IMG/VR virus record: IMGVR_UViG_3300021468_000003
Span: 1 to 62,457 of that record
DNA length: 62,457 nucleotides
From: a virus
Taxonomy: Duplodnaviria; Caudoviricetes
Strand: one strand, 5' to 3'
Shown here: positions 9,646-62,090 of the stretch, piece by piece
How positions within the stretch are numbered: the first letter of the stretch is position 1
How the letters are laid out: each line of letters begins with the position of its first letter
Translations under genes and position numbers: made by a program
Notes under the pieces: model-generated
What the model saw: the letters and a program-made list of their open reading frames with translations, nothing else
Databases searched by the model: none
Told to the model about the DNA's origin: nothing

Positions 9646-9646
9646 T

Positions 9647-9811: not shown

Positions 9812-9812
9812 T

Positions 9813-10987: not shown

Positions 10988-10988
10988 C

Positions 10989-15968: not shown

Positions 15969-15981
15969 TCAAGCCTCCACG

Positions 15982-24783: not shown

Positions 24784-25125
24784 CTATACTTCCTCCAACT
24801 CACAAGACATTTCCCAGTACCTATTTTTCTTGACTAGGGCCGGCCTCTTCACAAACCTCACTATCTTTGTGTCTCCACTGACGGGGTGCTCCCAGTTGAA
24901 CTTTCCCGTTGTTCCTTGCGTACTTATAAAGGAGGACATCGTCGTAAAATCAGCATCTGTCAACCCTTTATAGACGACGCCCCACTTCTTCGGGTCTTTC
25001 GTGAACCTCCTCCTCGTAATCACGTACCCAGCGTCTGTGGGCGTCCGCAGGTCTGCAACCCCCAGTCCTTCTTCCTTAAACGGGTACGCAAGGACTCCAC
25101 TCGACAATGTAGGAAAGTCTGCCAT
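24784..25125 (-). CDS. Distal tail protein (gpM-like)
   Basis: Position after tape measure; FNWEHP...VRF. Confidence 0.75.
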   Translation of the reverse strand: MADFPTLSSGVLAYPFKEEGLGVADLRTPTDAGYVITRRRFTKDPKKWGVVYKGLTDADFTTMSSFISTQGTTGKFNWEHPVSGDTKIVRFVKRPALVKKNRYWEMSCELEEV

Positions 25126-34975: not shown

Positions 34976-37498
34976 TTACACGATAAATTTCCGGTATTTC
35001 CCAAACTTGTGGCTTCGTTTCTTGGTGTGGAGTCTACGAAAAATGGACACAGCCTTGGCAGGGACGTTCCTACAAGCTGTGAGAGCGAGGAAGTTCTCAA
35101 CAGCCTCCGTCATCATCATGGCGTCGGCATAATCGGGGGAGAAACCTAGGCGGGCTTTGAATGCGATTTTGTCCTCCATCGCTATTGGGCCTTTTGAATA
35201 GTCAAAGCGAAGGTTCGCAAGCTCTTTCTTCAGCCTCTCCGGAGGGTCAACGGGGAAGTTGTAGGTGGGGAAGTTCTTATGGAGCTTATAGTAGTTCTCC
35301 GCTCGTTTGTCCTTGTACATGAGCTGATGATGGGCTTTTTCAGGCCCTACAAAGCCGAGGACAGGGAAGCGGTTGAGCTTCGCCAGGTTCGAGTAGGTAC
35401 CTGCGCCAAGCCCGTGGGCGTCAATGACTGCACAAAACGGACGGTTGATATACATGGTTCTCCAGATTCTCTCAACTTCATCAGCAACGAAGGTGGGGTC
35501 AGTCTTATAAAACTCATCCCACCGAACAAAAGAGTTGCCTATGCGGTGACAGAAGACACAGACGTCCGGCCCTCCTCCGGCAACGTCCACACTGAGGATA
35601 ACTGGGCCCTCTGTCATGGAGCGCTGAGTTGCTACGACTTTGTCGTAGACCTCTGGAGCCACAACGACGCTCTCATTGACGTCAATTGGCAGCCCCAAGA
35701 CCTTCGCCCTGTACATCGGAGAGTCTTTGCCGTAAATGTGGATAATTGTTTGGATGAACTCCTCATCGACGAGTGGGGAGTCCATGACGTTGTAGAAGAG
35801 AACCTTGAAGTCCTTTCCTTTCCCTTCAGGGTCGGAAATGACATCGTAGTAGAACCCTCCGGTGGAGACGGGGTTGGAGATGAGGAGGATGTAGGAGTTC
35901 TTATCGGTCATTGTGCCCACGAGGGCGGTGAAGACGGGATCAGGCACACCACTGTTGCCTGTCCAGTAGGCAACTCCGTTCCGTCGCACATAGATAGTAT
36001 GATGAGGTTCAGTTGAAACGCACCAAATTCTTCCTTTATAATGAATTGGTTTTATGTTGTGTTGCCTCACTTTAAAATCAGTAGAGGAGTTTGAAACTAT
36101 TGACACTACATAGTCATTATCTGAAGTTGTAGCAAAATGGTCTTTGATGAATTTTACTTGTCCTTTAATATTTCTTCTCGTTATTGTTGAGTACAGTCCG
36201 CACTTGATTGCCACTTCTTGAATATCGTCAGCAAGTTGTTTTGACATAGTATATATTATATGTCTGTTTTCAGTTTGAGTGTAACCGTCGCCTTTTATCA
36301 ATGCTGCTAGCAACATAAACAAGTATTTTTTATCAAGATTCTTTACGTATAATGGGATTTGTTTGTTTTTCGCTCCTTTTCCACAAGCAAGCAACTCGTT
36401 GTATAGTTGACTACAGTAAATTTTGATGTCGTTGTTGTGGATAGAGTACTTGTATCCTAGCCTATCTAACAGATTGCAAATAGCAGTTCTGCCTTGTTCA
36501 TCTGCTTGTGTTATTCCCACGTATCTATCTTGGATCAAGTAGCCCTCAGAGATATACCAACCAAGCAATTGGCACCAATCACTCAACTCTACAGGTTTTG
36601 GCGGATAGTATTTTCTTGGAGTTCTGTATTCCTTGAGTATGTACAGTTTCTCGTCTTTCCCTTTAAAATTGACTGTTTTAGGAATAAGCCAAGGAGTCTT
36701 CTTTGAGATGTCAAACTCACACATTTCTTGTATTCTGATTCCTGTGTTTCGCTTGGCTCTAGTATTACGTCTTCTGAAGACGACATTGTGGTGAGGAGAA
36801 AACATGAAACTCATGGTTCTGGACTTGTAATAGTACATGAGACCATCGTAATCTTCGTATTTGAAGATTCCTGTGATTGGCTTGTATTCAGCTTCCTCAG
36901 TTAGTGGATCCATTGTGAGGACTTTATGGTAAGTTTGGATTGAGTCAATTGTTTGCCAACCGTAGTCAGTAAGTATCTCAGTTTTATCGTCGAAGCAAGC
37001 CTCGTCCACCTCAATGAGGATTGAGGGAGCATGGAAGCCCGCAAGAGTATCATTGAGTTCCCTCTTATCCTTGCTAACTGTCCTCGCAGTTGCATACCAC
37101 TCACGGAAGCCCTCGACGTACAGCCTCCCCTTCACACGCTTGAACAACTTCGCAAGCCGGCACCTCTTCAACCAGGTGTCGATCTCCGACCAAAGGACGT
37201 CATTCAGCTGTTTTGCTGTGGGAGCGGTCGTGGGGACTTTTGCGAAGGGATGCGTAGTGAGGAACCAGAGGATGAGGATGGCGGAGACTGCGGTCTTTCC
37301 TATTCCACCACCTGCTGAGACGCATACATACCTGTTTTTAACGAGATGATGGGCAATCTCCTCCTGTTGCCAGGTCAACCCTGAGAGTTTGAGGCCCTCG
37401 AAGGAGATGTATCTGTTTGCCCAGCCGACGGGGTCATCCCTGTACTGCTGTGAAATCTCATTTACTATCTTTAACGTCTTTCTTTGTTTTTGATTCAC
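34976..37498 (-). CDS. terL: Terminase large subunit containing an intein
   Basis: AGGGIGKT Walker A, EVDEA Walker B, ISNP, SVDVAGGG nuclease motif, SPDYADA. Confidence 0.93.
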   Translation of the reverse strand: MNQKQRKTLKIVNEISQQYRDDPVGWANRYISFEGLKLSGLTWQQEEIAHHLVKNRYVCVSAGGGIGKTAVSAILILWFLTTHPFAKVPTTAPTAKQLNDVLWSEIDTWLKRCRLAKLFKRVKGRLYVEGFREWYATARTVSKDKRELNDTLAGFHAPSILIEVDEACFDDKTEILTDYGWQTIDSIQTYHKVLTMDPLTEEAEYKPITGIFKYEDYDGLMYYYKSRTMSFMFSPHHNVVFRRRNTRAKRNTGIRIQEMCEFDISKKTPWLIPKTVNFKGKDEKLYILKEYRTPRKYYPPKPVELSDWCQLLGWYISEGYLIQDRYVGITQADEQGRTAICNLLDRLGYKYSIHNNDIKIYCSQLYNELLACGKGAKNKQIPLYVKNLDKKYLFMLLAALIKGDGYTQTENRHIIYTMSKQLADDIQEVAIKCGLYSTITRRNIKGQVKFIKDHFATTSDNDYVVSIVSNSSTDFKVRQHNIKPIHYKGRIWCVSTEPHHTIYVRRNGVAYWTGNSGVPDPVFTALVGTMTDKNSYILLISNPVSTGGFYYDVISDPEGKGKDFKVLFYNVMDSPLVDEEFIQTIIHIYGKDSPMYRAKVLGLPIDVNESVVVAPEVYDKVVATQRSMTEGPVILSVDVAGGGPDVCVFCHRIGNSFVRWDEFYKTDPTFVADEVERIWRTMYINRPFCAVIDAHGLGAGTYSNLAKLNRFPVLGFVGPEKAHHQLMYKDKRAENYYKLHKNFPTYNFPVDPPERLKKELANLRFDYSKGPIAMEDKIAFKARLGFSPDYADAMMMTEAVENFLALTACRNVPAKAVSIFRRLHTKKRSHKFGKYRKFIV
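35954..36997 (-). mobile_element. Intein with LAGLIDADG homing endonuclease (348 aa)
   Basis: Begins CFDDKTEILT right after DEA; ends YWTGN before Ser; LGWYISEG and LIKGDG blocks; AT-rich insert. Confidence 0.93.
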
Positions 37499-39048: not shown

Positions 39049-39367
39049 TTTCTCCTCCTCTTAAGTTCTCGTCGATTGTAGCGATGAGGTGCTTGAGGGC
39101 AATCGAGATGTTGAGGCCCTCCCTCGTCAAGCGGTACTTCAACTTCCCTCTGTCGTCACGGAATCTCTCAGATAGGCCGTAAAACTCAAGGTCGTAGGGA
39201 ATGTAGCTGATCCCCATCTCAATGAGTTCCTGGGCAGTCACAGGCTCGTCTGAGATGATGAGGAGCGGGCGCATAAACTTGTCACTTAGCAGCTTCTTGA
39301 GGAAGCGCACACTCTTGTCATCTTTATTCCGCAACCAAATACTTTTTGCCTTCTTTGACTTCAACAT
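38987..39367 (-). CDS. Winged-helix-like protein
   Basis: LEFYGL...KYRLTREG; start uncertain. Confidence 0.45.
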   Translation of the reverse strand: MLKSKKAKSIWLRNKDDKSVRFLKKLLSDKFMRPLLIISDEPVTAQELIEMGISYIPYDLEFYGLSERFRDDRGKLKYRLTREGLNISIALKHLIATIDENLRGGESEKRREEDFFEGPSDPLYIP

Positions 39368-40478
39368 GGGCATCCCCCAAGTCTGAGAGCAGCTCAAGGA
39401 GTTCTTTGAACTGGTCTCTTGTTATTTCTGTGTGAAAAGTGCGGATGAGGTCTGCAAGAGGGAGGCGCCCTCCCCTTGCGCTCAACAACTGCACTGTCTT
39501 GTATGCGTAATGTGCTAGCTTGTTTGGAGACGAGAGAATGAAGGCGATGCGCATCTTCCTCTCGATTCCATCAAACATCTCCACAGAGGTCTCAATGTCG
39601 CTGACGTCCACAACCAACCTCTTGTCTGCGAGAGCTAGCAGAGCTGCAATCTTGAGAACGTGGGTCTTGACTTTGCGCTCCTGATAGGCGACGAGGCGGT
39701 GGTCCTGGGAGGCGTCAATCTCCTGTGAGATGTACCAATCCCTATAGAAGTCCTCTGCTGTCCTGCTTATCTCGATCTCGTTGTAAAGCTCCCCCATCCA
39801 CAACAGGTGCTCGATGAGCCTTTCCCTCGCTTTGAGCTGTGCGTCTGTAAGGGAGGGCGAGGGCTCCTTTCCTCGTTTCTTGTCCTCGTAGATAATGATC
39901 GTGCGGGCAAGGAAGCCGGTGGAGTTCATGTCAGAGACTACGTTTTCCCCAAACCACTCAGGCACGGCTGCTCCAATCAAGTTGAAATAGGGGTTCGTGA
40001 CCTCGAAGACTCCAGCGTTCTTTGTCTTGTAAATGAGGACGTCGTCCTTGTCCCAGATGTTCACGAGGAACTTCACCATGTCCACGCCAGAGGCGAGGAG
40101 CACGTTTAGTTCAGAGGCGACGTATGTGATGGAGGAGTGCCTGAACATCTTCCCCTTGACCTCGATCTGTTTTTCAAGCTCACACATCTCCATTATTATC
40201 TTTTCCTTAAGGACTGAGTCCTCGAAGACATTGTATCCCGCTTCCTTGAGGAGCCTCATCCCGATGGAGAGGGATGTGGACTTCGCACAGACACCTGGAG
40301 GCGCCACGAGGACGACGTACAAGTTGAGGAAGAGCTTGAAGAACCCTCGGTCGATCCACAACCGCTTCTCTGCTGCGCCCGCAAGGGTGGACATTGCCAC
40401 CCAGAGGTGCATGACCTCCGGCGTCTCGTTTCCTTCTGTATAAAAAAGGTAGTCTTCTACAAACTTCGGGTATTTCAT
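39324..40478 (-). CDS. DUF3987-like replicative helicase / ATPase
   Basis: NLYVVLVAPPGVCAKSTS, SELN, GFLARTI; adjacent to PolA. Confidence 0.75.
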   Translation of the reverse strand: MKYPKFVEDYLFYTEGNETPEVMHLWVAMSTLAGAAEKRLWIDRGFFKLFLNLYVVLVAPPGVCAKSTSLSIGMRLLKEAGYNVFEDSVLKEKIIMEMCELEKQIEVKGKMFRHSSITYVASELNVLLASGVDMVKFLVNIWDKDDVLIYKTKNAGVFEVTNPYFNLIGAAVPEWFGENVVSDMNSTGFLARTIIIYEDKKRGKEPSPSLTDAQLKARERLIEHLLWMGELYNEIEISRTAEDFYRDWYISQEIDASQDHRLVAYQERKVKTHVLKIAALLALADKRLVVDVSDIETSVEMFDGIERKMRIAFILSSPNKLAHYAYKTVQLLSARGGRLPLADLIRTFHTEITRDQFKELLELLSDLGDAHVEVKEGKKYLVAE

Positions 40479-42793
40479 ACCTTGAGCTCATTGTAGACTT
40501 TTTCTATATCGTTCAAGTCTTTGACCTCTTTGAGTGTACCCCAGGAGTAGCCGAGCTCGAAATCGAGGGGTACTACGAATGTGAGGCCGTTGACTGTTAT
40601 AGGGACTTCAACCAGCTTCTTCATTGCATACATGCACTTTATGATGGTTTCAAGGTCATCGTCTACTTGGCAGAGGATGGAGTCGTAGACTGAGAGACGA
40701 AACTCCCAGGAAGGGAGATCCTCTTCGTAAATGCGTATCAACCCCTCGTTGAGGTAGTCCGCAGCAGTGGACTGGGGTTCTGCTGCGATGGCCTCACGGA
40801 ACGTTTTGTCGTTGAGGGGCCCGAAGAACTGGATTACTCTGCCAAAGACAGTGCGGATCACCCTTTCCCTCTTGACTTGCCTCTCTACCCGCTGCTGCCA
40901 CTCCCTCAGACCAGGCCGAATCTCGTAGTACCTTGCTTGGAGCTCCGCAGCTTCTCTTTCGGAGCAACCGAGGATAGCAGCCATTAGGCGCTTCCCTAGG
41001 CGGTAATGTGTGCCGTGCGCTATGCGTTTCGCTGTGTAGCGGTGGGTGGCTTTATCAACTTTGTCGTAAGGGATATGGAAGAGGAGTGCCGCTGTCTCTG
41101 TGTGAAGGTCTGTCTCATCAAACTTTCGCAACCATTCCTCATTACCGCTAAGCGCAGCGACAATGCGGGCCTCCACTTGGGAGAGGTCGGCCTGAATGAA
41201 AATTTTGCCCTCATCAGCCTTGTAGAAGGTGCGAGTTTCTTTAGGGATGTTTAGCAAGTTTTTCCCTGAGCCTGTGATGCTTTCTGAGGACGCAAACCTG
41301 CCGGTGTAAGTGCCGTGGATCTTCAGTGCTGTTCGTATCCTTATGTCGGGGTCGTACTTGAGGTTGTAGAAGTCTCGCTTCTTCTTTGTTTCCCTGAGCT
41401 TTCTTATGAGACCAATGTGCAGCTTGAAGGGTGTCGGCATCCTCTCCAACTTCTGGAGCTTCTCATCATTTGTCGTAACCTTCCCATGTTTCTTTTGCAC
41501 GGGGAGCTGCCAGTCCTTGTAGATGAGCTTCTTGAGCTGAACGTGAGAATTTGTGTTGACATCGCCTATTGTTTGCTCCTTGATTGTTTCAAGGACTTCG
41601 ATTGCCCGCTCATTTTTCTTGCGGAACTCTTCAATGGCGTACAGATCGAGTTTTGTGCCCCGAACCATAGCGAAGAGGCAGGGGCGGATGAGGGACATCA
41701 TGCGGTTGTAAGCCTTGCGGGTGCCCCACTCATCTATCTCTCGCTGTTGAACTTCCATTATCTCGTATGTCAAGCAGCAGTCCTTCCCGCAGTAGATGTA
41801 GAGGGAGTCCCAGTCGACGGCGCCCCTCTTCACATCTTTCAGATAGTCCTTGACATCTTCGCCTTCCTTCAGGTCCTTCCAGTAGGGCTCGTTTGTGTAG
41901 ATGGAGGCGCAGAACGCTAGGGACTTGAGGAGCGTAGGGTAGATTGCGTGCTGGGCCAGCATGGTGTCGCAGTAGATGTTATTGTTGAGGATTTTGTAGT
42001 AGTAAGCGTTGTGCATACAGTCAAAGAGGGCGTTGTGGAAGACCTTGGGTGTGGAGGAGGCACAGAAGCGGGAGAGTTGGCGGAGGACAATCGGGTGGCG
42101 GAGGAGCTCCTTGGAAAGAACAAAGGCTTCTTTCTTGGAGGTCGCCATGCCATAGGCAACCATCACCGGCCCAGTTGTCTCGATGTCGCACACCACAGAA
42201 GAGGGGTAGTCTGTGAGGTTGTGAAGGAGTTTCAGAGCCTCGGTCTCGTTCGTAACAGTGCGAATGTTGCGCTCAGGATAAAGAATCTCTGGGAATTTGG
42301 ACTCACGGGCAGCCTTCTTCAAATCAAGGATGCAGATAGGCTCGAAGCGTCCGTTCCCCCTTATGATGTTCCCTGGGTGGATGATGGGGAGGACTTTGAG
42401 ACCTGGGACGAGGGTGCAAGGGAGGATGGCACCACGATACTTCGTAATTTGGGGACGGTTTGTGAGGACGTTCAGCGCCTTTGCACCTACAGCGATGACA
42501 AGGTTGAGACCTTCGGCCTTCAGTCGCTCCAGGTCCTCGGCTAGTTGCCTCCGGCCTTCAGCAATCACTTCCTGGGACAGGGTGTCATATCTGTTCTTGA
42601 ACGGACGCTTGTGGACAGTGTTCGTCACGAAGCACTCATGCCACTTGAGGCCAGCGAAACGGAACCACTTCCGAAGAATCTGTCCCTCGTACCCAATGAA
42701 AGGCTTGCCCCTGCGGTCTTCCTCTTCCCCAGGCGCCTCGCCGACGACGCAAATCTTAGCTGGGTTTTGTGGGACCTGTTGGATTAGGCGCAT
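40475..42793 (-). CDS. Family A DNA polymerase with N-terminal uracil-DNA-glycosylase-like domain
   Basis: VVGEAPG...PFIG...TN...HP UDG motifs; DIET, FHNALFD exonuclease motifs; TGRFAS, DLSQVEAR, KRIAHGTHY, VYDS polymerase motifs. Confidence 0.92.
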   Translation of the reverse strand: MRLIQQVPQNPAKICVVGEAPGEEEDRRGKPFIGYEGQILRKWFRFAGLKWHECFVTNTVHKRPFKNRYDTLSQEVIAEGRRQLAEDLERLKAEGLNLVIAVGAKALNVLTNRPQITKYRGAILPCTLVPGLKVLPIIHPGNIIRGNGRFEPICILDLKKAARESKFPEILYPERNIRTVTNETEALKLLHNLTDYPSSVVCDIETTGPVMVAYGMATSKKEAFVLSKELLRHPIVLRQLSRFCASSTPKVFHNALFDCMHNAYYYKILNNNIYCDTMLAQHAIYPTLLKSLAFCASIYTNEPYWKDLKEGEDVKDYLKDVKRGAVDWDSLYIYCGKDCCLTYEIMEVQQREIDEWGTRKAYNRMMSLIRPCLFAMVRGTKLDLYAIEEFRKKNERAIEVLETIKEQTIGDVNTNSHVQLKKLIYKDWQLPVQKKHGKVTTNDEKLQKLERMPTPFKLHIGLIRKLRETKKKRDFYNLKYDPDIRIRTALKIHGTYTGRFASSESITGSGKNLLNIPKETRTFYKADEGKIFIQADLSQVEARIVAALSGNEEWLRKFDETDLHTETAALLFHIPYDKVDKATHRYTAKRIAHGTHYRLGKRLMAAILGCSEREAAELQARYYEIRPGLREWQQRVERQVKRERVIRTVFGRVIQFFGPLNDKTFREAIAAEPQSTAADYLNEGLIRIYEEDLPSWEFRLSVYDSILCQVDDDLETIIKCMYAMKKLVEVPITVNGLTFVVPLDFELGYSWGTLKEVKDLNDIEKVYNELKV

Positions 42794-44058
42794 TTTTTCT
42801 CCTCGATGTAAGCAATTGTTGCTGAGATGCTTTTGTTGTAATGACGTTCGAGCTTTTCGCAGCCGATGAACTGCCTGTTGGTGTCGTAACACGCTCGGAT
42901 AGTGGAGCCACTCCCGCAGAAGACGTCGAGGACGGTGTCGCCTGGGGAGGAGAATGTCTGGATAATGTCGATGATGAGGGCCTCCGGCTTTTGAGCAGCG
43001 TGAAAGCGCTTGCCTGCTGGAGGAGGTGGGTAGGTGAAGATGTTGGAACGGCCTTGTTTGGTGAGACGGGCGTCAGGGGTAGTGTATGCGTACAGGGCGA
43101 TTTCGGCGGCACACCCGACACGGAGGGTTGATTGAATTGACCGCCCCGTTGCCCCCGATTTGACCCATATCAACGGCACCCTTGGAACGTAGAACCCTGC
43201 ACGTTCAGCCATGACACACACGGCCTCATACAATTGATATGACGTCCACAAAACCATGTACCGCCCGTCACGAAGGACACGGCGGAAATGGGGCATACAT
43301 GCCTTCAGCAGGGCGACGATGTCAGCCTGCTCGTCTTCGTACGCTTCCTCCGGAGAGGCGACAACATCATCCAAGTTGATGCCATACGGTGGATCAGTGA
43401 GTACTAGATCCACCGAGGCATCGTCGAGGGTGGAGAGGAAGGAGACGGCATCCCCTAGGCGATAGTTCGCCAGAAGGCCCTCGAAGTCAATTTTAGCTTT
43501 CGCAGCCTTCGCCTTCTCAACTGCACCGAGTATCTTCTTTTTTTCTTCAGCATCCATCCTGCGAACAGCTTCACTCACGGAGGTTGCGTCCTTAACAAGC
43601 TCCTCGTTGTCAGCGATCTTCAGGAGCCGACTAACCATAGCAGGGTCTTTGCCCAGGAGTTTCGCTGTGTCCTTCACAGTCCAACCGCCAGTGTGTCCTG
43701 GGACGGGGCGCCCCTTCTCTTCGACGCCCCTCTCATGGATAGCTTTGACCAACCGAGCGATTTCGACGGGCTTCAGGTCCGAGCGTTGGATGTTCTCTTC
43801 GAGCTGGGCCACGAGGTCGTCGATGCCCTCCCTCAAGATGAAGTGTTTTCCCTCCTCCAGGTAGGTTAGTCCGAGGTACTCGGTGAGGGCAATGAAGCGA
43901 CTGCGGCCCGCTCTCACAATGTAGGAGTCCCCGACTTTCTCCACAAGGATTGGCTGTAAAAGCCCGACGTTCTTGATGGAGAGGGCCAGGTCTCCAATTC
44001 CTTCTCGCTCTTCCCTGAAGTCGCTTTCGAAGATAAATTGCTCAGCTGGTACACGCAT
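42784..44058 (-). CDS. ParB-like N-terminal domain fused to N4/N6 DNA methyltransferase
   Basis: SIKNVGLLQPILV...AGRSR; TDPPYG; QKP; LDVFCGSGST. Confidence 0.9.
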   Translation of the reverse strand: MRVPAEQFIFESDFREEREGIGDLALSIKNVGLLQPILVEKVGDSYIVRAGRSRFIALTEYLGLTYLEEGKHFILREGIDDLVAQLEENIQRSDLKPVEIARLVKAIHERGVEEKGRPVPGHTGGWTVKDTAKLLGKDPAMVSRLLKIADNEELVKDATSVSEAVRRMDAEEKKKILGAVEKAKAAKAKIDFEGLLANYRLGDAVSFLSTLDDASVDLVLTDPPYGINLDDVVASPEEAYEDEQADIVALLKACMPHFRRVLRDGRYMVLWTSYQLYEAVCVMAERAGFYVPRVPLIWVKSGATGRSIQSTLRVGCAAEIALYAYTTPDARLTKQGRSNIFTYPPPPAGKRFHAAQKPEALIIDIIQTFSSPGDTVLDVFCGSGSTIRACYDTNRQFIGCEKLERHYNKSISATIAYIEEKKCA

Positions 44059-44062: not shown

Positions 44063-44428
44063 TTACTCCATCGCCGTCAAGTTCTTAATTTCGTTGCGCA
44101 TTTCCCCTTCGTACTCTCGCTGGCGGACGTCGAGGATAGCCTCGAGCCCCTCGAAGTCCTGGGTGTCAAGCTGCTTGCCACTTTCAATGCCTGCGGCTTC
44201 GGCGTACTGCTTCACTTTCCAGGTGACGGAGAGGACGACGTTGTCAAAAAGTTTTCGTCCTTCGTACTCACCCTCGATGACAACCCACTCCATCTTGAGC
44301 ATCGGCTTCCCTGTGGTGCTTTCCACGAGGGTGCATTTGTCTAACCGAGCAGGATATTGTCCTGCTGGAAGGGGATCGAAACCGCTTTGGACTTCGGCTA
44401 AATCGTAGTCTAAGTTGATAATAGTCAT
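44063..44428 (-). CDS. DUF669-like single-stranded DNA-binding protein
   Basis: FDPLPAGQY...GKPMLKMEW...GRKLFD...RNEIK. Confidence 0.8.
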   Translation of the reverse strand: MTIINLDYDLAEVQSGFDPLPAGQYPARLDKCTLVESTTGKPMLKMEWVVIEGEYEGRKLFDNVVLSVTWKVKQYAEAAGIESGKQLDTQDFEGLEAILDVRQREYEGEMRNEIKNLTAME

Positions 44429-44443: not shown

Positions 44444-45250
44444 TTACGCCTCCGGCGGCGTCCATGTTGGTTCAGGAAGCTCCCTGCCGAGGGAGGCTTC
44501 CAGATAAGGTTTCATTTTCTCATACGTCGGATTTTCAATGTCAGGTAAGAGCGCCTGGGAGCCTGTGGCGGTGCGTGGGTCTGGGATGCTGCGGAGAACC
44601 CTCGTGACTTTTGGTTTGTTGCGGGTGCCGCTGACCCTCGTCTCCAAGCGCAAGTACTCATTCACCATCGAAGGGATGCGGTCCTTGGATTGGCCAGGGA
44701 CGAGGAGCTGCCTCACAAACTCCCCCGTGACCTCATCCTTTGATGTGTACTCATGTCCGATGATGATAACGTTGCACTTCGCTCCCTTGGATTTGAGGGT
44801 AAGGATGAGGGAGAGCATCTCATTGAGGAAGACACCCCAGTCTTGGATCTGGAGCTGCTCCCTCCCCACCTTTCGACGGACGTAGTCCAAGAGGAACTCC
44901 GACGCCCTTGAAGTGTTGTCGAGGATGAGCGTGGAGTCCTTGGGCATCCGCAAGGCAAGGCGTTCGACAAGTTTCTTCACCTTGAGCCAGGCAGATTGCT
45001 TGATGAAGGCTTTCCCACAGATTTGGACGAAGTCCTCATCTTCCGTTGGCCCTTCGTCTATCTGGATGACGTCGAAATCAAAGTCCAAGTCGTACTTCGC
45101 CCGAAGGGACTTGACACTCTTGAGCCCGTCGTCCAGGTCGATGAAGAAGGGCTGTGGGAACTGTGAGGCAAGGACGGTCTTCCCTACCTTTGGTGGGCCC
45201 CACAACACTACAATGTACCGTTCAAACTTCATTTCACTCAGTTTCGCCAT
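44444..45250 (-). CDS. Sak4-like AAA recombination ATPase
   Basis: WGPPKVGKT, FIDLDDG, LILDN, IIGHE. Confidence 0.8.
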   Translation of the reverse strand: MAKLSEMKFERYIVVLWGPPKVGKTVLASQFPQPFFIDLDDGLKSVKSLRAKYDLDFDFDVIQIDEGPTEDEDFVQICGKAFIKQSAWLKVKKLVERLALRMPKDSTLILDNTSRASEFLLDYVRRKVGREQLQIQDWGVFLNEMLSLILTLKSKGAKCNVIIIGHEYTSKDEVTGEFVRQLLVPGQSKDRIPSMVNEYLRLETRVSGTRNKPKVTRVLRSIPDPRTATGSQALLPDIENPTYEKMKPYLEASLGRELPEPTWTPPEA

Positions 45251-45431
45251 CTTCTTCCTCCCCTCTGACAAAGATGGTGTCGCCCTCGTAAGCGAAGGAG
45301 ACGGCGGCGACCTCTCGGCCACACTCCCTACAGACATAGACCTTCGTCTGCGTGGGGAAGCTCCCGTTCTTCCCTTCAAACACGATTTTCTTCCGCTTTA
45401 CATACATGCTTCCTCCGCAGACGCAAATCAC
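45234..45431 (-). CDS. Zn-ribbon small protein
   Basis: CVCGG...CRECG; overlaps both neighbours. Confidence 0.6.
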   Translation of the reverse strand: MICVCGGSMYVKRKKIVFEGKNGSFPTQTKVYVCRECGREVAAVSFAYEGDTIFVRGEEEDGETE

Positions 45432-46192
45432 CAGTCCAGCTCCTTCTGCTCACGAGAGATGTTGTAGCACCTATCAATGATTAGTTGCTTTTGAGAGGGG
45501 TCGGCCTTACACAAAGGCGTGTATGGGCAGTCCCTCCCAAAGGCTTTGCACGCAAAAGGGGACTTGGGAAAGACCCCTTTCGTGGTGCACAGTGTGTAGA
45601 AGGAGAGGAGGAGCTTTGTCTCCTGTCTCCATCTCTTTAACTCATCCAAGGTAAATGTAATGAGGTAGCGGTTGACCTCCAAGCGGTGGGGGTCGAGGGA
45701 GTTGATAAGGATGCCCGCTACCTCGGAGAAGTAGACCTTCGCTCCGGCCCAGTACGAGATGAACTGATCGTTTGGTTTGAATTGGAGGTAGTAGGGCTTC
45801 GTTGTCTTGTGCTCGACGACGTAGAGCTCCCCATTTACCTTCGCAATCCCATCGAACCGCCCCCTCCACTCATGCCTGCCGATCTTGAAGGTGAAGTCTT
45901 TTTCGGCGACGAGGAGTTTGGGTGGCTTCGAGGCGACATACATGTTCAGCAGGGTGATCGCATTGATTCGGTTCTTCACCCCGTGCTGAGGAAACTCCAT
46001 GTCCTGCAAAAAAGCAAGGGCCTCTTCCTTCCCCTCCTTATGGAACTTTTCTATCGCTTTATGGATAGCCGTTCCGAAGAGCAAATCTGGATTCTTCCCA
46101 CCTCCCTTCAACACCAAGCCGAGGTCATACGCATAGTGTGCTCGTGCGAAACACAGCTTCATCTCTGCGAGGAAAGAGGAGCGAACGATCAC
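45428..46192 (-). CDS. Cas4-like PD-(D/E)XK exonuclease
   Basis: GTAIH, GRFDG, EHKT, Q..SY; one N-terminal Cys plus C-terminal C..C..C cluster. Confidence 0.85.
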   Translation of the reverse strand: MIVRSSFLAEMKLCFARAHYAYDLGLVLKGGGKNPDLLFGTAIHKAIEKFHKEGKEEALAFLQDMEFPQHGVKNRINAITLLNMYVASKPPKLLVAEKDFTFKIGRHEWRGRFDGIAKVNGELYVVEHKTTKPYYLQFKPNDQFISYWAGAKVYFSEVAGILINSLDPHRLEVNRYLITFTLDELKRWRQETKLLLSFYTLCTTKGVFPKSPFACKAFGRDCPYTPLCKADPSQKQLIIDRCYNISREQKELDW

Positions 46193-46395
46193 TCGGAGCC
46201 TCCGGCGAGGAGTTTCTTGAACAGCTCCTCGTTCTCTTTCTTCTTCTTTGACGAAACCTTGCGTTTGCGCAACGCCTTCTTCGTCTTCGCCTCCAAGGCT
46301 CGGAGCTGCTCCTCGTTGAGGGTACGCACGATTTCCTCAATGTCAGCATCTGTCATCTCATGCAAGGGCTTCTTCAGCAGGTCTTCGAACTTCAT
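46189..46395 (-). CDS. Small basic hypothetical protein
   Basis: ATGA overlaps on both sides. Confidence 0.65.
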   Translation of the reverse strand: MKFEDLLKKPLHEMTDADIEEIVRTLNEEQLRALEAKTKKALRKRKVSSKKKKENEELFKKLLAGGSE

Positions 46396-46830: not shown

Positions 46831-46858
46831 TGAGAGGGTGGGCGTTCGCACCCTCTCA
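46831..46858 (-). terminator. 10-bp hairpin just beyond the array (terminator or processing signal)
   Basis: TGAGAGGGTG-N8-CACCCTCTCA; no clear U-tract. Confidence 0.45.
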
Positions 46859-46895
46859 GGAGCGCTCCAACACAATGGGGGTTCTTTGTTTTTAA

Positions 46896-47409
46896 TGGCT
46901 CACTTATCTACTCTGGTTTCCTTAGCGCTCGTGGTTCACTTGAAACCCTTTGGTTTTCTTGCATTCAATGGTTCACTCCATAGTGATGGATTCCTTGAGG
47001 AATGTGATTCATTCGTCGCTCTTGGGTTTCTTTTGCCAGTTGATTCACTCCATTTCCCTGGTCTCCTTGTTGACAATGATTCACTTAGCGGCCTTGGTTT
47101 CCTTCATGAGCGTGGTTCGCTCGACAACGATGGTCTTTTTGCCGATAGTGGCTCACTCTCAGCCCAAGGGTTTCTGTCCTGACATGGCTCACTTTTTGCT
47201 CGTGGGTTTCTTTTGTTTGCTGGTTCACTTCCCCGAACTGGGCTTCTCGTGCACAATGGTTCACTTCTCGAAACTGGTTTTCTTGTTTTTGATGGTTCAC
47301 TTTTATAAGATGAGCTCCTTAATATGTCTGATTCACTCTTACAGAATGGATTTCTTAGATTGTGTGATTCACTTCTAAAGACTGGTTTCCTGCCTTATTG
47401 TGATTCACC
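46896..47409 (-). ncRNA. TIGR-like guide RNA array: 14 units of 36 nt (one unit 37 nt)
   Basis: Minus strand: AGTGAAYCA-N9-AGRAAMCCA-N9 repeated with unique spacers; starts 4 nt after the tas stop codon. Confidence 0.88.
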
Positions 47410-47412
47410 TTT

Positions 47413-48354
47413 TTAGTAAACCCACCCCCTTTCCTCAGGCATAATCATCCTTTCATGCCCCAAGTGTGCCACGGGGTAAACTGGGTCTGTCGGCAATCCA
47501 GCGATCGTCCGCCCTACATACCACCAGTCGGCGAGAAAGTGCTTCATTATCGCTCGCATAGCTGCGCTGTGACGGTGCGAAGGCTTCGTCTCACACCAAG
47601 GCTTCTCTATGAGCTTCCCCTGAGTGTTTCTTGTTTTGACGATGCGACGGCTGTTCTCAAGCCGCTTCTTCACCCTGTCGTAGACCTTGCGGTAGGGCCC
47701 TCGGCTCTTGACTTGGGAGTCTGCGAGAGTGTAGAGGGCTGTCCGGAGGGTCTTGTTTCCGCCGGAGGCTTCGCCTTTCGTGTACCTCTCGTGGGAGGCG
47801 CAGTGGAGTCCAGTGTACTTCCACAAGGAAGACGCATGTTTCGCTTTTTCAAGCCGGATGTACACTAAGCAGAAGGCAACCGTCATAGGCCCTACGCCTC
47901 GCACCCCAAGAGCAGCTTTCGCCAACGGGGAGTCGATGGACTTCACGAACTTCTCCACAGCCCGACTCCTCTCCCTCAACTTCAACTCGACCCCTCGGAG
48001 CTGGGCCTCGAGCCAGGCGACAGTGTCGGGGTTGAGGGAGTCGGTTTGGCGCTTGTAAGCGAGTAGCTGGTTTGCGAACTTGTTGCGCAACTTCAGGATC
48101 TGCTGGCGGTCGTCAACCAGGCGTTTTAGTTCGTCGAGGTCGGCAGGGCGGATGACAAGGTTGCCGTGACGCTGCATGTGGGCAACGGGGTGGACAACCC
48201 TGGTGTTTTCGTCTGTGTAGGTTCCACCTTGTGCTTTTGGAGTAATGCGGTCGGTGTCGAAGAGAGCTGTCCACTCCTCTAGCAAGACGTTTGAGAGGGC
48301 ACATTCGCCGTTTTGCCGCTCTTTGATTTTCTTCTTGAGAGCCTCTTTTGCCAT
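47413..48354 (-). CDS. tasH: TasH-like protein: degenerate HNH plus IS110-C-terminal/Nop-like RNA-binding domain
   Basis: DRITPKAQGG...EN...H..AH HNH-like N-terminus; coiled coil; GVRGVGP, SSLWKYTGL, GNKTLRTAL, AAMR..MKHFL; no DEDD RuvC; adjacent array. Confidence 0.8.
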   Translation of the reverse strand: MAKEALKKKIKERQNGECALSNVLLEEWTALFDTDRITPKAQGGTYTDENTRVVHPVAHMQRHGNLVIRPADLDELKRLVDDRQQILKLRNKFANQLLAYKRQTDSLNPDTVAWLEAQLRGVELKLRERSRAVEKFVKSIDSPLAKAALGVRGVGPMTVAFCLVYIRLEKAKHASSLWKYTGLHCASHERYTKGEASGGNKTLRTALYTLADSQVKSRGPYRKVYDRVKKRLENSRRIVKTRNTQGKLIEKPWCETKPSHRHSAAMRAIMKHFLADWWYVGRTIAGLPTDPVYPVAHLGHERMIMPEERGWVY

Positions 48355-48366
48355 GACTTCTCCTTT

Positions 48367-50196
48367 CTAGTACCTGATGATAAGGTTGCCTGAACGCTCC
48401 ACCTCGATGGCGTCCATCACTTTAAGGAAGGTCGCTTTCCCAAGGACGTTCTGGGCCACCTTTTGCTTTGCGAGGATGTCCTCCCTCGTGCAGATGCCCA
48501 TTTTCCAGAGAGACTCCGCCCTCTTTCTCCCAATTCCTGGCAACCTGACGAGATCAATGAGCTTCGCAGGAACGCCGGACTTAAGCATCATCTCTAGCAC
48601 CTCCGTGTACTCTTTGTTGAGGCCCGCAATCCGCAGGGCGGCGCAAATCCGCTCTACATCGGCGAGGAACCCGAAGACCACGGTGGAGACGAAGTCCGTG
48701 ACGGGCTTTCCTGAAAGCCAGTGGTAGATTGCGGTTGCGAGGATTGTCTGCGCTCCGTAGGGGAGTTTGATGACGTCCTTGAGGGTGTCAGGGATGAAGG
48801 TGTCGTACGCCAGCGAAGGGATGTTGGCGAATGCTTTTGCAATGAGGGTTGGGGCAGTTGGCTTCGAGCTCAAGTTTGCCTTCAGGTGGTACAGGTCTAT
48901 GGGGTCCACGTACATGAGGGCAGCGGCTCGGCCCACAGAAGAGACTGTGGGGAAGTCCTTAGGCCCACGGACGATCCCGTATTTGCGCAGGAGCTCCATT
49001 GCCTCAGCGGGGGCATCCCCAAGCAGATCCTGGTGGGCCGCAAGAGTGGAGTCGAGGAAGTTGGAGATGTCATGCGCATCCATCCCCTCACGGGCGATAA
49101 ACGACACAAGGTGGAAGTATATCCTCCTCGGGAGGACGCTCTTCACCTCTGGCACGTTCATTACCTCTTCACGCATCTTCTCAAAGTACCAGTCCATGAA
49201 GATGTAGTAGACCACGCCCTTCTCACTGAGGCCGTATCTGCCGATTCTCCCTGCCTCTTGTTTGATGTCAGCTGGGTCGACGAGGGTGGGGCCTCGGTGG
49301 CCGCCCACAATGACGCCCACGTCTGCCGGCAAGTTGACACCGTACGCTAGGGTGGAGGTTGAGACCATCACCCGCAAGCGGCGCTCCCTGAAGGCCTCCT
49401 CGTAGGATGCTCGCTTCTCCTTCGGCACCTTACTGTAGTGAAAGGGGCAGTCCAGCACCTCTGCGAGCCTCCTTCCCGTTCCTATGGAGTGGACGAAGAT
49501 GAGGAACTGGGAGCCTGGATGGCGGTTGAGGATGCGAGCTATCTCCTCAGTCGCCTTTGCCAAGAAGCCCCAGTTCGTATCCGGCGCTCGGATGAAGTGA
49601 TGCTCCTGGATGACGGGGCGCCAGTCTGTTTTGACGACTCTCGTGGGCTTGGAGTTGAGACGTGTGAGCCAGGAGCCGAGCTCATCTGCGTTTGGGATTG
49701 TTGCGGAGAGGAAGATGATGCGGGCCTCAGGGTTGATTTGGGCGAATCTCGTTAGGCCGATCTCAAAGGCGTCCCCTCGTCCATACATGGAGAGCATGTG
49801 CGATTCGTCGCTGACGAGGGTGCCGATGGAGCGGAGCCAGCGCCTCGCTCCTCTCGTCTTCGAGTCCAAACACTCCGTGGTCATGAGAATGAGCTGCTCA
49901 TTGACAGTGACGCCTGGGCGGGAGTGATCACTTGTGAAGGCGACTCGCTTGTAAGGGACGTCTGCCCAGGAGTGGAGTTTTTCGTTTGTGAGGGCTTTCA
50001 GGGGGCTAAGGTAGAGGGCCTTGCGCCCGCCCTCGAGGGTGGGGAGCATGAACTGCTCAGCGACGATTGTCTTCCCGCTTGAGGTAGGAGCAAGGACTAC
50101 GAGGTTGCAGTTCTCCTCTACAAAGGGCCACGTTAGGCGCTGCAGTGGGTTGTAGGTCAGGCCTTTTGCTTTATGATAGTTAAGCATCTCGTTCAT
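48367..50196 (-). CDS. Ski2/Hel308-like SF2 DExH helicase
   Basis: APTSSGKT, PLKAL, DESH, SAT, WRPV, TSTLAYGVNLPA, QEAGRIGR; C-terminal HhH LPGIGRKRA. Confidence 0.9.
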   Translation of the reverse strand: MNEMLNYHKAKGLTYNPLQRLTWPFVEENCNLVVLAPTSSGKTIVAEQFMLPTLEGGRKALYLSPLKALTNEKLHSWADVPYKRVAFTSDHSRPGVTVNEQLILMTTECLDSKTRGARRWLRSIGTLVSDESHMLSMYGRGDAFEIGLTRFAQINPEARIIFLSATIPNADELGSWLTRLNSKPTRVVKTDWRPVIQEHHFIRAPDTNWGFLAKATEEIARILNRHPGSQFLIFVHSIGTGRRLAEVLDCPFHYSKVPKEKRASYEEAFRERRLRVMVSTSTLAYGVNLPADVGVIVGGHRGPTLVDPADIKQEAGRIGRYGLSEKGVVYYIFMDWYFEKMREEVMNVPEVKSVLPRRIYFHLVSFIAREGMDAHDISNFLDSTLAAHQDLLGDAPAEAMELLRKYGIVRGPKDFPTVSSVGRAAALMYVDPIDLYHLKANLSSKPTAPTLIAKAFANIPSLAYDTFIPDTLKDVIKLPYGAQTILATAIYHWLSGKPVTDFVSTVVFGFLADVERICAALRIAGLNKEYTEVLEMMLKSGVPAKLIDLVRLPGIGRKRAESLWKMGICTREDILAKQKVAQNVLGKATFLKVMDAIEVERSGNLIIRY

Positions 50197-55909: not shown

Positions 55910-56147
55910 TTCCTACCTCCTTTACCTCGACGAGAGCCCCGTCCTCGATGAGCTTGATCTCGACCTCCCGAAGGAACAGCGCCAGGTAATAGCACCCACC
56001 AAACACCGAGCCTATCCGTTGCCCGTAGTGCGAAAGGAAGAGCGCCTTTGGATGGGCGACTGTTGCACTCACTCCTCCATAGTTAAGAGTCAGTTTTTTG
56101 TTGTCGTAAATAAGGATACCGTCTCCTTTAAACTTCACCTCGACCAC
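55899..56147 (-). CDS. Paralogue family C, member 2
   Basis: LIYD.KKL...V.ATV.H...EDG shared with 55664-55909. Confidence 0.6.
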   Translation of the reverse strand: MVEVKFKGDGILIYDNKKLTLNYGGVSATVAHPKALFLSHYGQRIGSVFGGCYYLALFLREVEIKLIEDGALVEVKEVGNEV

Positions 56148-59466: not shown

Positions 59467-59492
59467 AGCAATTTGCACGCAAACAATTTGCT
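59467..59492. promoter_or_regulatory. 26-bp palindromic motif, copy 6
   Basis: AGCAATTTG-cacgcaaa-CAATTTGCT abutting the RBS of the 59452 gene. Confidence 0.62.
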
Positions 59493-59502
59493 TCCGCCGA
59501 GC

Positions 59503-59718: not shown

Positions 59719-60039
59719 CTACACCGCCAAGGCCTTCTTCAACTGATGGAGAAGGTCAACCTTGTTAACCTTGCCTGCGGCGGCCAGCCTCAGCAGTTCG
59801 TCGATCTCCCGTTGCTTGTGGGGGCGCCTGCCGACGCCTTTGGCTCTCGGCTTCCCTCTCGTGGGGAGCACCGTCACAGGCGACAACTCCCTCTCGAGGG
59901 CCTCTTTCTCTTTCCAAAGCTCCGTGAATTCCCGCCTCCAGGCGGAGAGGATTTCCTCTGCCTTCTTGATGCGGGTACCCAACTCAACCATTTTTCTGTC
60001 AAGTTCCTCAATCCTTTCACTTTTGACTTTTTTGTTCAT
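59719..60039 (-). CDS. Coiled-coil basic protein, first gene of the leftward arm
   Basis: AGGAGG RBS. Confidence 0.7.
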   Translation of the reverse strand: MNKKVKSERIEELDRKMVELGTRIKKAEEILSAWRREFTELWKEKEALERELSPVTVLPTRGKPRAKGVGRRPHKQREIDELLRLAAAGKVNKVDLLHQLKKALAV

Positions 60040-60159
60040 CTTTGCCTCCTTTCTCCCGCCTCAGCGGGCTTCTGCTGGCCATACATAGCCAGCGGGCTTG
60101 CTCCCCGTCTGCATACATGCCGAGGGGCTTCCGGCTTGCATACATAGGCAGGGAAGCGG

Positions 60160-60351
60160 TTATTAGGTTGTTACAATATTCTAATGTTAGATTATTGACG
60201 GATTGAGATAGTAGAATGTTGTGATAAGTCAATAGTCTAATATTAGGATATTGTAAGATTGTAGTATTGAAATGTTGTAATATTAAAATGTTGCAATATT
60301 GGCGTGTTGCAATATTAGAGGATTGTAGTATTAGATTATTGGCATGTTGTA
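60160..60351. repeat. Degenerate 8-nt periodic tract (24 units, approximately NTRTTRNR)
   Basis: e.g. atattgta-agattgta-gtattgaa-atgttgta-atattaaa-atgttgca; phase kept throughout. Confidence 0.75.
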
Positions 60352-60711
60352 ATGGGGACGGGATGCAAGGTTTATGCCAAAACGGACGGTTTACCAAAAC
60401 TAAACTTTTGTTTAGCGCTGGTAAACTATGAAAATTTTTTCCATTTTTCGGAAAATCTTTTCTTTCCATATATTTTTTCCTTAGTCTTTTATTCTTTTAA
60501 CGTGAAAATAACATATATTTCGCTATTGGCGCAAGCAGAAAATGCTAGTCAAATCAAGTGTTTGCTAGGCAAAGTTAAGATAGATTAGCTATTTTTTATG
60601 TGCGATTAGTCAATTTTTATGAGAAATTGACTATTTTTACAGAAAAATCAGATTTTGTTAGGTTTTGTTGGATATTTCAGAAAAATCAAGCAAAACTTCG
60701 GATATTTTGCC

Positions 60712-60741
60712 TTGACTATATTAAAAATGATATGATATAAC
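60712..60741 (+). promoter_or_regulatory. Sigma70-type promoter
   Basis: TTGACT, 18-nt spacer, TATAAC with extended -10 TG; AT-rich upstream. Confidence 0.6.
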
Positions 60742-60829
60742 ACAAGCAACAATTGAGTTTGTTCTTTGAAAACTAAATATCGAAGCAAGCGCTTACTAGT
60801 TGGCGCAAGGCTAGAAAGCGAGGATAGCT

Positions 60830-61027
60830 ATGGACAAATTATCAGAAGAATATGCAATAATCTTTAAAAAGGATTATCGCAAATATGGGTATAGTCAAGT
60901 ATATTCAGGATTTGACGCTATTCTAGTTCGTTTGTACGAGAGTGAACCGGACTACGTTGTCTTTGCTATTCCGACGTGGGATAGTGAAGAAATCTATTTG
61001 ATTGAGAAAGCTATGGACATTCATTAA
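60830..61027 (+). CDS. Hypothetical early protein
   Basis: GAGG RBS downstream of the promoter. Confidence 0.65.
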   Translation: MDKLSEEYAIIFKKDYRKYGYSQVYSGFDAILVRLYESEPDYVVFAIPTWDSEEIYLIEKAMDIH

Positions 61028-61092
61028 TTAACTTTATTAGTTGCCTTGCGCTGGTTAGTAAGCGCTTGCACTCACGGAAGGGAGCGGATGTT

Positions 61093-61440
61093 ATGAGTAA
61101 AGAAAAAATAACTTTGACAAAAGATCAGACTGAGCAATGGAAAAAGCATCGGGCAAAAGTTATCAATGACTTGCTTGAAAACATTGACGTTTCTGGCGAA
61201 CTTGCTTACTTTGTTGAAGTAGGGATCACACGAGCACTTGACCAGCGATACAGTACTGCTGAGACAAAGCTCAAACTCATGGACGCTGACGGATTTCCTA
61301 AGCTAGCTGATCTGATCCCTAAGGGGAGTGAAAAGACTCAATTAATTCGTGAATTGCTTCCGAAGCTTCCGCAATTCACGGAAGATATGCTTAAGAAATT
61401 GGATACTGAGCAATTACGAAAACTTAAGGAAAATCTGTAA
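61093..61440 (+). CDS. Hypothetical early protein
   Basis: ATG 61093 after GGGAG. Confidence 0.7.
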   Translation: MSKEKITLTKDQTEQWKKHRAKVINDLLENIDVSGELAYFVEVGITRALDQRYSTAETKLKLMDADGFPKLADLIPKGSEKTQLIRELLPKLPQFTEDMLKKLDTEQLRKLKENL

Positions 61441-61465
61441 ATTTTAACAAGTGAGTGCAAGCGCC

Positions 61466-61500
61466 AAGGCCAAGGACCGATGTCCTTGGCCTTTTTATTT
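61466..61500 (+). terminator. Rho-independent terminator
   Basis: AAGGCCAAGGAC-cgat-GTCCTTGGCCTT followed by a T-run. Confidence 0.85.
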
Positions 61501-61981
61501 GGTCAAAAATCCCGCTTGTTTTCCGTTTCTGCGGTGTTTCTTGCCTTATCTGGTATCTTTCCCTGGGGACGTCCCCAAGGCAAAAATGGGCGATTTTTCC
61601 TTATGTTTTTAATGGTAGTTTGCAAGTCTTGTGCCGGGAAATCCTACCTAGTTAATTGGTAGGAATTAAAAGATTTTGTGAGTACGGTTCAGAATTTCGA
61701 TTTGAAAATGAGTGCCGTTCAACGCATGCAAGAAATGTGCCAAAATTTGTGATATGCAAGAAACGTGCCAAAAAATTTTTCCAGTAATTCCAACGACTTA
61801 CAATCCCTACTATATTACTAATTTGGCATATAAGGTTTTGCGGATTTTTTCGCACTCTCTCGCTAACCTGCTGATTTTTCAGGGAAAAATGTGCGATGAC
61901 GTCGTAAGTAGTTAGAAATACTAGAAAAGCATGATTTTCTTAATGATTCCGCAAGGTTGCGTGTCGGACAAATGAACGGGA

Positions 61982-62090
61982 TTTTGTGAATAATTTCGGG
62001 CACTTACAGATTTGCGGCTCGAAAACTTTTCCTAATGATTTCGGGTACTTAGCTGACCATGATTTTCCTTGTAATTTCGGGCACTTAGCT
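61982..62090. repeat. Three direct repeats of TTTT...ATTTCGGGYACTTA
   Basis: Copies near 61982, 62027 and 62063 in non-coding terminal DNA. Confidence 0.7.

Follow-up and report, generated by a model that had tools for sequence, protein, structure and literature searches.

A probable dual-repeat TIGR-TasH locus in the replication and recombination block of an uncultured tailed phage

The locus described here lies on the minus strand of IMG/VR record IMGVR_UViG_3300021468_000003, a tailed phage (Caudoviricetes) sequence of 62,457 bases that was analysed over the entire virus record and is referred to below as the window. It consists of tasH (47413..48354), a gene for a 313-residue TIGR-associated HNH-Nop protein, and of an array of short repeated units (46870..47410) that follows directly on the same strand, so that gene and array together occupy 46870-48354. 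A first-pass annotation, made from the letters and their reading frames, had proposed a TIGR array served by a TasH protein, and this proposal was borne out by a match to the TasH of Salicola phage CGphi29 at E 2.1e-99 and by a dual-repeat architecture such as that reported in PMC12045711. It is thus highly likely that the locus is a dual-repeat TIGR-TasH system of an uncultured tailed phage, placed inside its DNA replication and recombination block: it displays features by which such systems can be recognised from sequence and lacks those that define IS110 transposases and CRISPR systems. It is clearly a new example of a known family, TIGR-Tas, described in 2025, and not a new kind of system.

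The tasH gene was delimited from the list of open reading frames (ORFs), from its matches among protein structures and from an AlphaFold2 model compared by Foldseek. Its ATG (48354-48352) stands 5 nucleotides after an AAGGAG Shine-Dalgarno sequence (48360-48365) and 12 nucleotides beyond the stop codon of the helicase gene upstream. When the protein was compared by phmmer with the sequences of the PDB, TasH (21kl/9vzx/9w02-04) came out on top, query residues 8-312 aligning with residues 3-308 of the chain, and the TasR of 9mty was matched as well (E 2.8e-11); a pairwise alignment with the CGphi29 protein, SpTasH, runs over the full length and has 159 of 308 positions identical (52%). The fold tells the same story. 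The AlphaFold2 model, built with 31 homologues in the alignment, reached a mean predicted local distance difference test score (pLDDT) of 90.3 and a predicted template modelling score (pTM) of 0.84, and the first nine ranks of its Foldseek search against the PDB are all TasH chains, with template modelling (TM) scores of 0.68-0.90. The best of them, 9w04_B (E 1.5e-33, TM 0.90), belongs to the TasH-tigRNA-DNA structures (9w04 and others) on which the model was superposed. Below the TasH chains stand TasR (9mty; E 5e-9, TM 0.53) and then two IS110-family recombinases, ISCro4 and IS621 (E ~1e-5), and no chain of the box C/D small nucleolar ribonucleoproteins (snoRNPs; Nop5/Nop56/58) is found among the rows listed by the PDB fold search. 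The absence of a Nop fold had been named beforehand as an outcome that would speak against the TIGR proposal; with TasH, TasR and the IS110 family as its nearest structural neighbours, the model gave the opposite result.

Three regions can be told apart in the model. The N-terminal one (~residues 1-66; 48157..48354) is an HNH, that is beta-beta-alpha-metal, nuclease domain, assigned from the model, from Foldseek and from residue invariance: strands 33-36 and 51-54 precede a helix at 56-62, the first ~70 residues match the HNH domains of Cas9 and Gme over ~60-77 columns with Foldseek probabilities of 0.95-1.0, and none of the residues D33, R36, N50, H59 and H63 varies among the aligned homologues (31/31) or differs in SpTasH. 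Next come two long helices (71-101 and 109-139; pLDDT 96-98) that form a coiled coil in the AlphaFold2 model (~residues 71-139; 47938..48144), the region to which a dimerisation role in Tas proteins is attributed in PMC12045711 and PMC13421893. The rest of the protein (~residues 143-313; 47416..47928) is a Nop domain of the IS110 RNA-binding type, supported by Pfam, PHROG and the alignment, and includes a C-terminal loop with Y293 and H300. This arrangement agrees with the Nop-like C-terminus and HNH-like N-terminus that had been noticed at the outset. The C-terminal loop deserves particular attention, for Y289 and H296 of SpTasH are reported as the pair that catalyses cleavage of the precursor tigRNA (PMC13421893), and a C-terminal Tyr/His processing pair is described as a feature of dual-repeat systems (bioRxiv 10.64898/2026.09.09.750476). 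Both residues are kept in the window protein: Y289 corresponds to Y293, present in all 31 homologues, and H296 to H300, present in 20 of the 31. Also kept are the counterparts of R278, R305 and H268 of SpTasH, and R282 and R309 of the window protein are found in 31/31 homologues.

Could the gene nevertheless be what automatic annotation would call it, namely an IS110-family transposase whose neighbouring repeats are a transposon-associated or bridge-RNA sequence? The Pfam family Transposase_20 (IS110 C-terminal domain) covers residues 151-221 at E 2.8e-4, scoring 21.7 bits against a cut-off of 21.3, PHROG 4285, labelled 'transposase', matches at E 9.6e-29 and PHROG 2199 carries the same label, and IS621 and ISCro4 figure among the Foldseek neighbours named above. 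These resemblances to IS110 proteins are, however, limited to the Nop part; no DEDD or RuvC family was matched, the N-terminus has the HNH fold and the match to TasH is stronger by ~90 orders of magnitude. What follows the gene is a tandem series of 15 units of 36 nucleotides and not one two-loop bridge RNA, and the gene occurs as a single copy in the window without inverted or direct ends, or any repeat pair, around it. The transposase interpretation is already refuted by fold and domain content, and the probability left to it is close to nil.

The array itself (46870..47410, minus strand), delimited by motif counts and by the information content of its columns, starts three bases past the TAA stop codon (47415-47413) of tasH. 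With up to two mismatches allowed, the motif AGTGARYCA-N9-AGRARMCCA has 15 matches in the 62,457 bases, all of them within 46878-47409 of the minus strand and in 36-nucleotide phase; 100 dinucleotide shuffles averaged 0.10 matches and never exceeded 1. The observation that the first repeat begins 4 nucleotides past the stop proved correct, the 9-mer opening on the fourth base. Thirteen units keep exact phase from 47410; unit 13 is 37 nucleotides long, its spacer B having one additional base, which is the single 10-nucleotide spacer of the first-pass annotation, and two further units lie beyond it. A phased minus-strand array had been correctly recognised there as well, with 14 units reaching down to 46896, whereas 15 can be counted and the end lies near 46870: 14 are regular, and the loop repeat of the terminal unit 15 (46905-46870) is degenerate. 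The proposed layout of alternating repeats and spacers likewise stood in its essence and changed in its measure. The base ahead of each 9-mer is constrained as well: the first repeat is preceded by R in 15/15 units and the second by A in 12/15. The spacer columns are close to uninformative (0.03-0.48 bits each, as against 1-2 bits in the repeat blocks), and both findings argue for a parsing of 10+8+10+8 rather than 9+9+9+9 nucleotides. Each unit accordingly reads as an edge-type repeat RAGTGARYCA, an 8-nucleotide spacer A, a loop-type repeat AAGRARMCCA and an 8-nucleotide spacer B, where the assignment of edge and loop follows the analogy with the CGphi29 array. Both repeats open with (R/A)AG and close with YCA or CCA, in keeping with the YCA ending noted earlier for both, and these end motifs might be named boxes by analogy with PMC12045711.

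Dual-repeat TIGR arrays are defined in PMC12045711 by two distinct alternating repeats of 8-12 nucleotides, variable spacers of ~8-9 nucleotides and ~5-15 repetitions; the window array has 15 units of 10+8+10+8 nucleotides directly downstream of tasH and on its strand. Two alternating 10-nucleotide repeats with 8-nucleotide spacers rule out a CRISPR array, in which one repeat of ~25-36 nucleotides alternates with spacers of similar length and which is accompanied by cas genes; here the neighbours encode a helicase, an exonuclease, Sak4, a single-stranded DNA-binding protein (SSB), a ParB-methyltransferase and a polymerase. Folding of the array as RNA gave nothing out of the ordinary (z -1.08), as would be expected if it is of the dual-repeat and not of the stem-loop type. 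The expectation that standard finders would overlook it was supported, since Tandem Repeats Finder recovered 2.8 of the 15 copies and Rfam yielded no match at E<=1.

A unit of 36 nucleotides is also 12 codons, and an ORF of 142 residues on the opposite strand (46950-47378, plus) stays open across ~12 units. Might the periodic region therefore be a translated protein of 12-residue repeats, or simply a low-complexity tract produced by chance? In a sister phage considered below, ORFs over the array do not exceed 71 residues, so that the antisense frame is broken there, and a 37-nucleotide unit breaks the frame in mid-array. The repeat columns are fixed and the spacer columns almost devoid of information, none of the three array ORFs tested (3/3) contains a Pfam family, and tasH homologues with wholly different spacers are still followed by the same repeat pair. 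The 15 motif matches against 0.10 expected speak just as plainly against chance. A translated product, which had been put forward in advance as the finding that could overturn the TIGR proposal, is not supported, and hardly any probability remains for either variant of this explanation.

How does the array end? Its last unit is followed by a putative terminal edge repeat, degenerate in its 3' part (46859..46869, minus), the 5' half of which fits the edge repeat and the 3' half of which does not; the stretch is identical in the sister phage. It is a possible terminal repeat, the fit of which would need a longer last spacer. Directly 3' of the array, folding reveals a GC-rich hairpin with a 10-bp stem and no U-tract (46831..46858, minus), conserved in the sister phage. 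The segment 46800-46905 (minus) folds at -34.5 kcal/mol (z -3.03), a stability attained by 0/200 shuffles, and the hairpin is possibly a transcript end or a stabilising structure. Promoter and terminator prediction gave no useful call.

The features of the window locus recur in its relatives. Among 2160 candidate public proteins, 714 are homologues of TasH at E<=1e-3; of these, the 120 listed reach E<=5.8e-108 without exception and go by no other name than 'hypothetical protein'. A tblastn search of 50,697 phage records returned two with at least 80% coverage, both of them CGphi29 (51.8% identity), and 185,579 species genomes contained just two TasH relatives, both on contigs of metagenome-assembled genomes, so that the clade looks essentially viral or metagenomic. 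Four viral loci, 25 metagenome loci (two of them duplicates) and CGphi29 gave 28 distinct loci for comparison. A simple lag-36 detector placed an array of 36-nucleotide period next to the gene in 24 of the 28, and a 25th, L011, was missed by the detector although short arrays are visible by eye; two of the three other misses are fragments at contig ends. In all the relatives with detected arrays the consensus unit is 10+8+10+8 with the same repeat types, also where the spacers that follow the tasH homologue are wholly different. In many relatives arrays flank the gene on both sides; that the window has a downstream array only is explained by the start of tasH 12 nucleotides after the helicase stop. 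In one contig of a public sequencing run (X2) the helicase stop and the tasH start lie 223 letters further apart (window 48354-48367), and the additional letters may be an upstream array of the kind seen in many relatives. In L011, whose tasH is 99.5% identical to that of locus L010, most of the downstream array has been replaced by ~1.7 kb (1059-2745), leaving two units, and within the new stretch lies an ORF with a ParB/Srx-like motif. As to the scale of the family, the catalogue in bioRxiv 10.64898/2026.09.09.750476 lists 20,096 tas loci, together with 4,126 arrays of the dual-repeat type.

The sister record (G001) is collinear with the window from 20 to 62.4 kb; nucleotide identity is 85-96%, with 93% in the tasH region, and the TasH that it encodes is 96% identical. 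Its array also has 15 units. For the array comparison, window positions 46870-47410 were set against 3972-4513 of L002 and against contigs of four public runs (X1-X4), and since contigs were used, the run comparisons speak of presence only. Seven units (2, 3, 6, 7, 9, 10 and 15 of the window) are shared with the sister at a spacer identity of at least 15/16, unit 14 has an identical spacer A and a spacer B that agrees at 4/8 positions, and the remaining seven units of the window are without a match in the sister. Those in common are collinear and interleaved with replaced ones, which indicates that the turnover has no polarity. Among the relatives, two tasH genes that are 99.9% identical have all 30 spacers in common, a pair at 98% shares one, and a pair at 96.4% shares 0 (7 versus 14). 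The contigs of the four runs revealed an exact skip of 72 nucleotides (two units) and several unit-sized replacements, and the run that resembles the source contains a second, minority array allele, at which the assembly breaks (46986-47181).

What might such an array be directed against? TIGR cuts are reported to leave 3' overhangs (PMC12045711), and from this a target was deduced in which the sequence of spacer A precedes that of spacer B in reverse complement. All 15 guides were searched in the window with the array masked, with gaps of 0-2 and in the opposite geometry as well. No self-target with 0-1 mismatch exists in the window in either geometry. Sites with two mismatches number 8, as against 2.1 +/- 1.4 in 200 mispaired controls, 0/200 of which reach 8; with three mismatches there are 22 sites versus 21.5 in the controls, hence no excess. 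The eight near-self sites are located at 15980-15995, 21193-21210, 22905-22922, 25558-25575, 25591-25606, 27634-27649, 56070-56085 and 59479-59494, five of them within the tail-gene block at 21-28 kb, and none is better matched in the sister phage. Their excess is a weak and unexplained signal. The 41,228-bp sister record has no site with 0-1 mismatch for either the window or the sister array. A wider search, in which 188 guides parsed from the window, the sister record and 22 other loci (24 sources) were run against 197,972 bases, returned one perfect match, an AT-rich, intergenic site in L017 for a guide of L024, and five with one mismatch; five mispaired control sets gave 0 perfect and 1-6 one-mismatch sites. 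One candidate, a guide of L021 that lies 1-2 mismatches from a conserved site in tasH in seven genes, was rejected as chance, the totals over the tasH genes being 1 and 13 against 0.47 and 9.9 in controls. The suggested search with spacer A and reverse-complemented spacer B was carried through for the window, the sister and the relatives' loci, and no natural target emerged there.

It is conceivable that turnover and near-self sites belong together, the array being a hypervariable cassette in which whole units, and occasionally one spacer on its own, are exchanged, dropped or added internally and without CRISPR-like polarity, either by recombination between the 10-nucleotide repeats or by an unknown writer, while the guides are aimed at kin phages and the self is spared by differences of at least two bases. 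The 7 of 15 units shared with the sister, the unit-sized swaps in three other runs together with the minority allele, and the 8 near-self sites versus 2.1 would fit such a scheme, which taken as a whole we nonetheless consider improbable. As for the biological role of the locus, a conflict with other mobile elements or with kin phages is our guess, because spacers turn over fast between near-identical phages.

By analogy with SpTasH, from which self-processing, dual-spacer recognition and HNH cutting are carried over, the dual-repeat TIGR-TasH system of the window would operate as follows. tasH would be co-transcribed with the helicase gene upstream, and transcription would read through from tasH into the array. 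A TasH dimer would bind the precursor and cut inside each edge repeat by means of Tyr293 and His300 of the C-terminal loop, releasing ~14-15 different tigRNAs of 36 nucleotides that, if they resemble those of SpTasH, would begin and end with half an edge repeat and hold the loop repeat between spacer A and spacer B. The two 8-nucleotide spacers would then base-pair with neighbouring target segments, each on a different strand, ~16 bp in total and without a protospacer-adjacent motif, whereupon the two HNH domains would cut both strands, as expected from the biochemistry of SpTasH and TasR.

Several observations weigh against so direct a transfer. The column of H300 holds G, N, T, S or E in the remaining 11 of the 31 homologues, and with H300 kept in only part of the relatives, autonomous processing by TasH is uncertain, as judged from the alignment. 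Four residues that support processing in SpTasH differ in the window protein (K180 to C, R286 to D, E292 to A and K293 to H). No intrinsic terminator was called after the array on the minus strand, where the hairpin without a U-tract is found instead, and no natural target emerged for any guide in the window, the sister record or the relatives' loci. An active nuclease is predicted from the invariance of the HNH residues, and among these residues R36 occupies what we take to be the position of the first histidine of canonical HNH enzymes, a position at which SpTasH also has arginine. These last points invite the question of whether the protein cuts at all. An arginine in the place where, presumably, canonical enzymes have their first histidine would suit a TIGR-Tas locus with a non-cutting protein, an RNA-guided DNA binder or repressor like TasA and dead TasR, and RNA-guided repression by Tas proteins that lack a nuclease is documented in bioRxiv 10.64898/2026.09.09.750476. 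Yet SpTasH, with the same arginine, is reported as an HNH-dependent nuclease in PMC12045711, and the five HNH positions kept in 31/31 homologues argue for selection on the active site. A non-cutting TasH is therefore given a very low probability, if a somewhat better one than a transposase.

Within the phage, the TIGR locus sits in a replication and recombination module, all genes of which are on the minus strand. Gene labels were taken from PHROG scans of 30 neighbouring ORFs. The helicase gene (48367-50196) lies upstream; the gene list then continues beyond the array with two small minus-strand ORFs of no assigned function, an exonuclease (45428-46192; phrog_1218, E 4.5e-16), a Sak4-like annealase (44444-45379), the SSB (44063-44428), a ParB-methyltransferase (42784-44058), a DNA polymerase (40475-42892) and a primase (39324-40478). 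Downstream of the replication genes and still on the minus strand are those for terminase, portal, protease and major head protein, and for tape measure and central tail fibre. The exonuclease ORF has a weak, third-ranked match to phrog_1706, 'CRISPR/Cas system associated' (E 2.5e-6), which is the sole Cas-labelled match among the 30 ORFs; since it scores better as an exonuclease, it is read as one of the PD-(D/E)XK type. No integrase was seen among the 30 ORFs and no tRNA was found in the window. The closest cultured phages have major capsid proteins that are at most 32% and polymerases that are at most 31% identical, and by these comparisons the carrier is a phage without a close cultured relative.

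A few further observations on the phage genome may be added. The ParB-methyltransferase, a fusion of a ParB-like N-terminus with a DNA methyltransferase, lies 2.8 kb downstream of the array and not adjacent to it; in the literature an association with ParB is described for TasA operons and not for TasH. The large terminase ORF (34976-37498, minus) encodes 840 residues, its terminase matches are split between residues 2-120 and 516-797, and phrog_5902, of unknown function, matches within the first ~170 residues in two stretches, the better at 39-167; this suggests that the ORF holds an inserted or fused element. ARAGORN called a permuted transfer-messenger RNA at 45542-46227 (plus), antisense to the exonuclease gene, which is probably a false positive. 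A second 36-nucleotide periodicity, at 25647-25812, was considered as another array and rejected, as it corresponds to a coiled-coil coding repeat in the tape measure gene (25125-27272, minus). The left 8 kb have a strongly positive GC skew, and the plus-strand genes of that end (window 1-11000) include those for a dCMP deaminase and a DHH phosphoesterase. Over the last 2 kb (60001-62000) the GC content falls to 38%. Terminal repeats of the window were not found.

What, then, is gained from one more TIGR-TasH locus? The existence of the window locus is not surprising in a family catalogued on a large scale. Its value may lie elsewhere. At 52% identity to the single characterised TasH, and with the same guide geometry, the protein is a possible orthologue for use in biochemical work or in editing. 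The phage contig is long (62 kb) and is accompanied by a sister genome and by variants from the population, a strain series with which questions of spacer turnover and targets could be approached, and it is the targets of the spacers and the way in which arrays gain them that PMC12045711 and bioRxiv 10.64898/2026.09.09.750476 present as open in the field. Judging from the Pfam, PHROG, Tandem Repeats Finder and Rfam results, annotation pipelines would call tasH a 'transposase' and overlook the array.

Among known systems, there is a likeness to the box C/D snoRNPs (Nop5/Nop56/58), with which, following PMC12045711, TIGR systems can be compared by the Nop domain, coiled-coil dimerisation and two short antisense elements with box C/D-like flanks; these particles, however, guide RNA methylation through fibrillarin and L7Ae and contain K-turns, partners and motifs of which none was seen in the window, where no search was aimed at them. 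IS621 and ISCro4, the IS110 bridge-RNA recombinases, have the Nop-type RNA-binding domain in common with the window TasH, whereas their DEDD/RuvC recombinase domain, single structured bridge RNA and mobile-element ends are not present at the window locus. TaTasR, the TIGR-TasR protein of Thermoproteota (9MTY), shares both the Nop domain and the coiled coil and is reported in PMC12045711 to have a dual-repeat array, 36-nucleotide tigRNAs and tandem-spacer targeting. It differs in having RuvC instead of HNH, spacers of 9 nucleotides and repeats that start with UG rather than the AAG of the window, and it is described in the same source as a protein that does not process its own guide. The nearest counterpart is the SpTIGR-TasH system of CGphi29 (NC_020844; 9W02-9W04, 9VZX, 21KL). 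The two loci diverge in their surroundings, the CGphi29 locus lying between the major head protein and head-tail adaptor genes and that of the window between helicase and exonuclease, and in their array ends, that of CGphi29 closing with a truncated copy of the first repeat type and with a hairpin that has a T-run, which the window hairpin lacks; half of the protein sequence, including the four accessory processing residues, has also changed. They agree in the order of domains (HNH, coiled coil, Nop), in the Tyr/His processing pair and in an array placed directly downstream on the same strand. In CGphi29, 10-nucleotide repeats of the AAGCGAGCCA and AAGACAACCA types alternate with 8-nucleotide spacers in a period of 36 nucleotides, just as in the window, and the repeat consensus sequences nearly match (AAGYGARYCA and AAGRMAMCCA types). 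This 10+8 layout agrees with the 16 variable nucleotides per guide reported for SpTIGR (PMC12045711).

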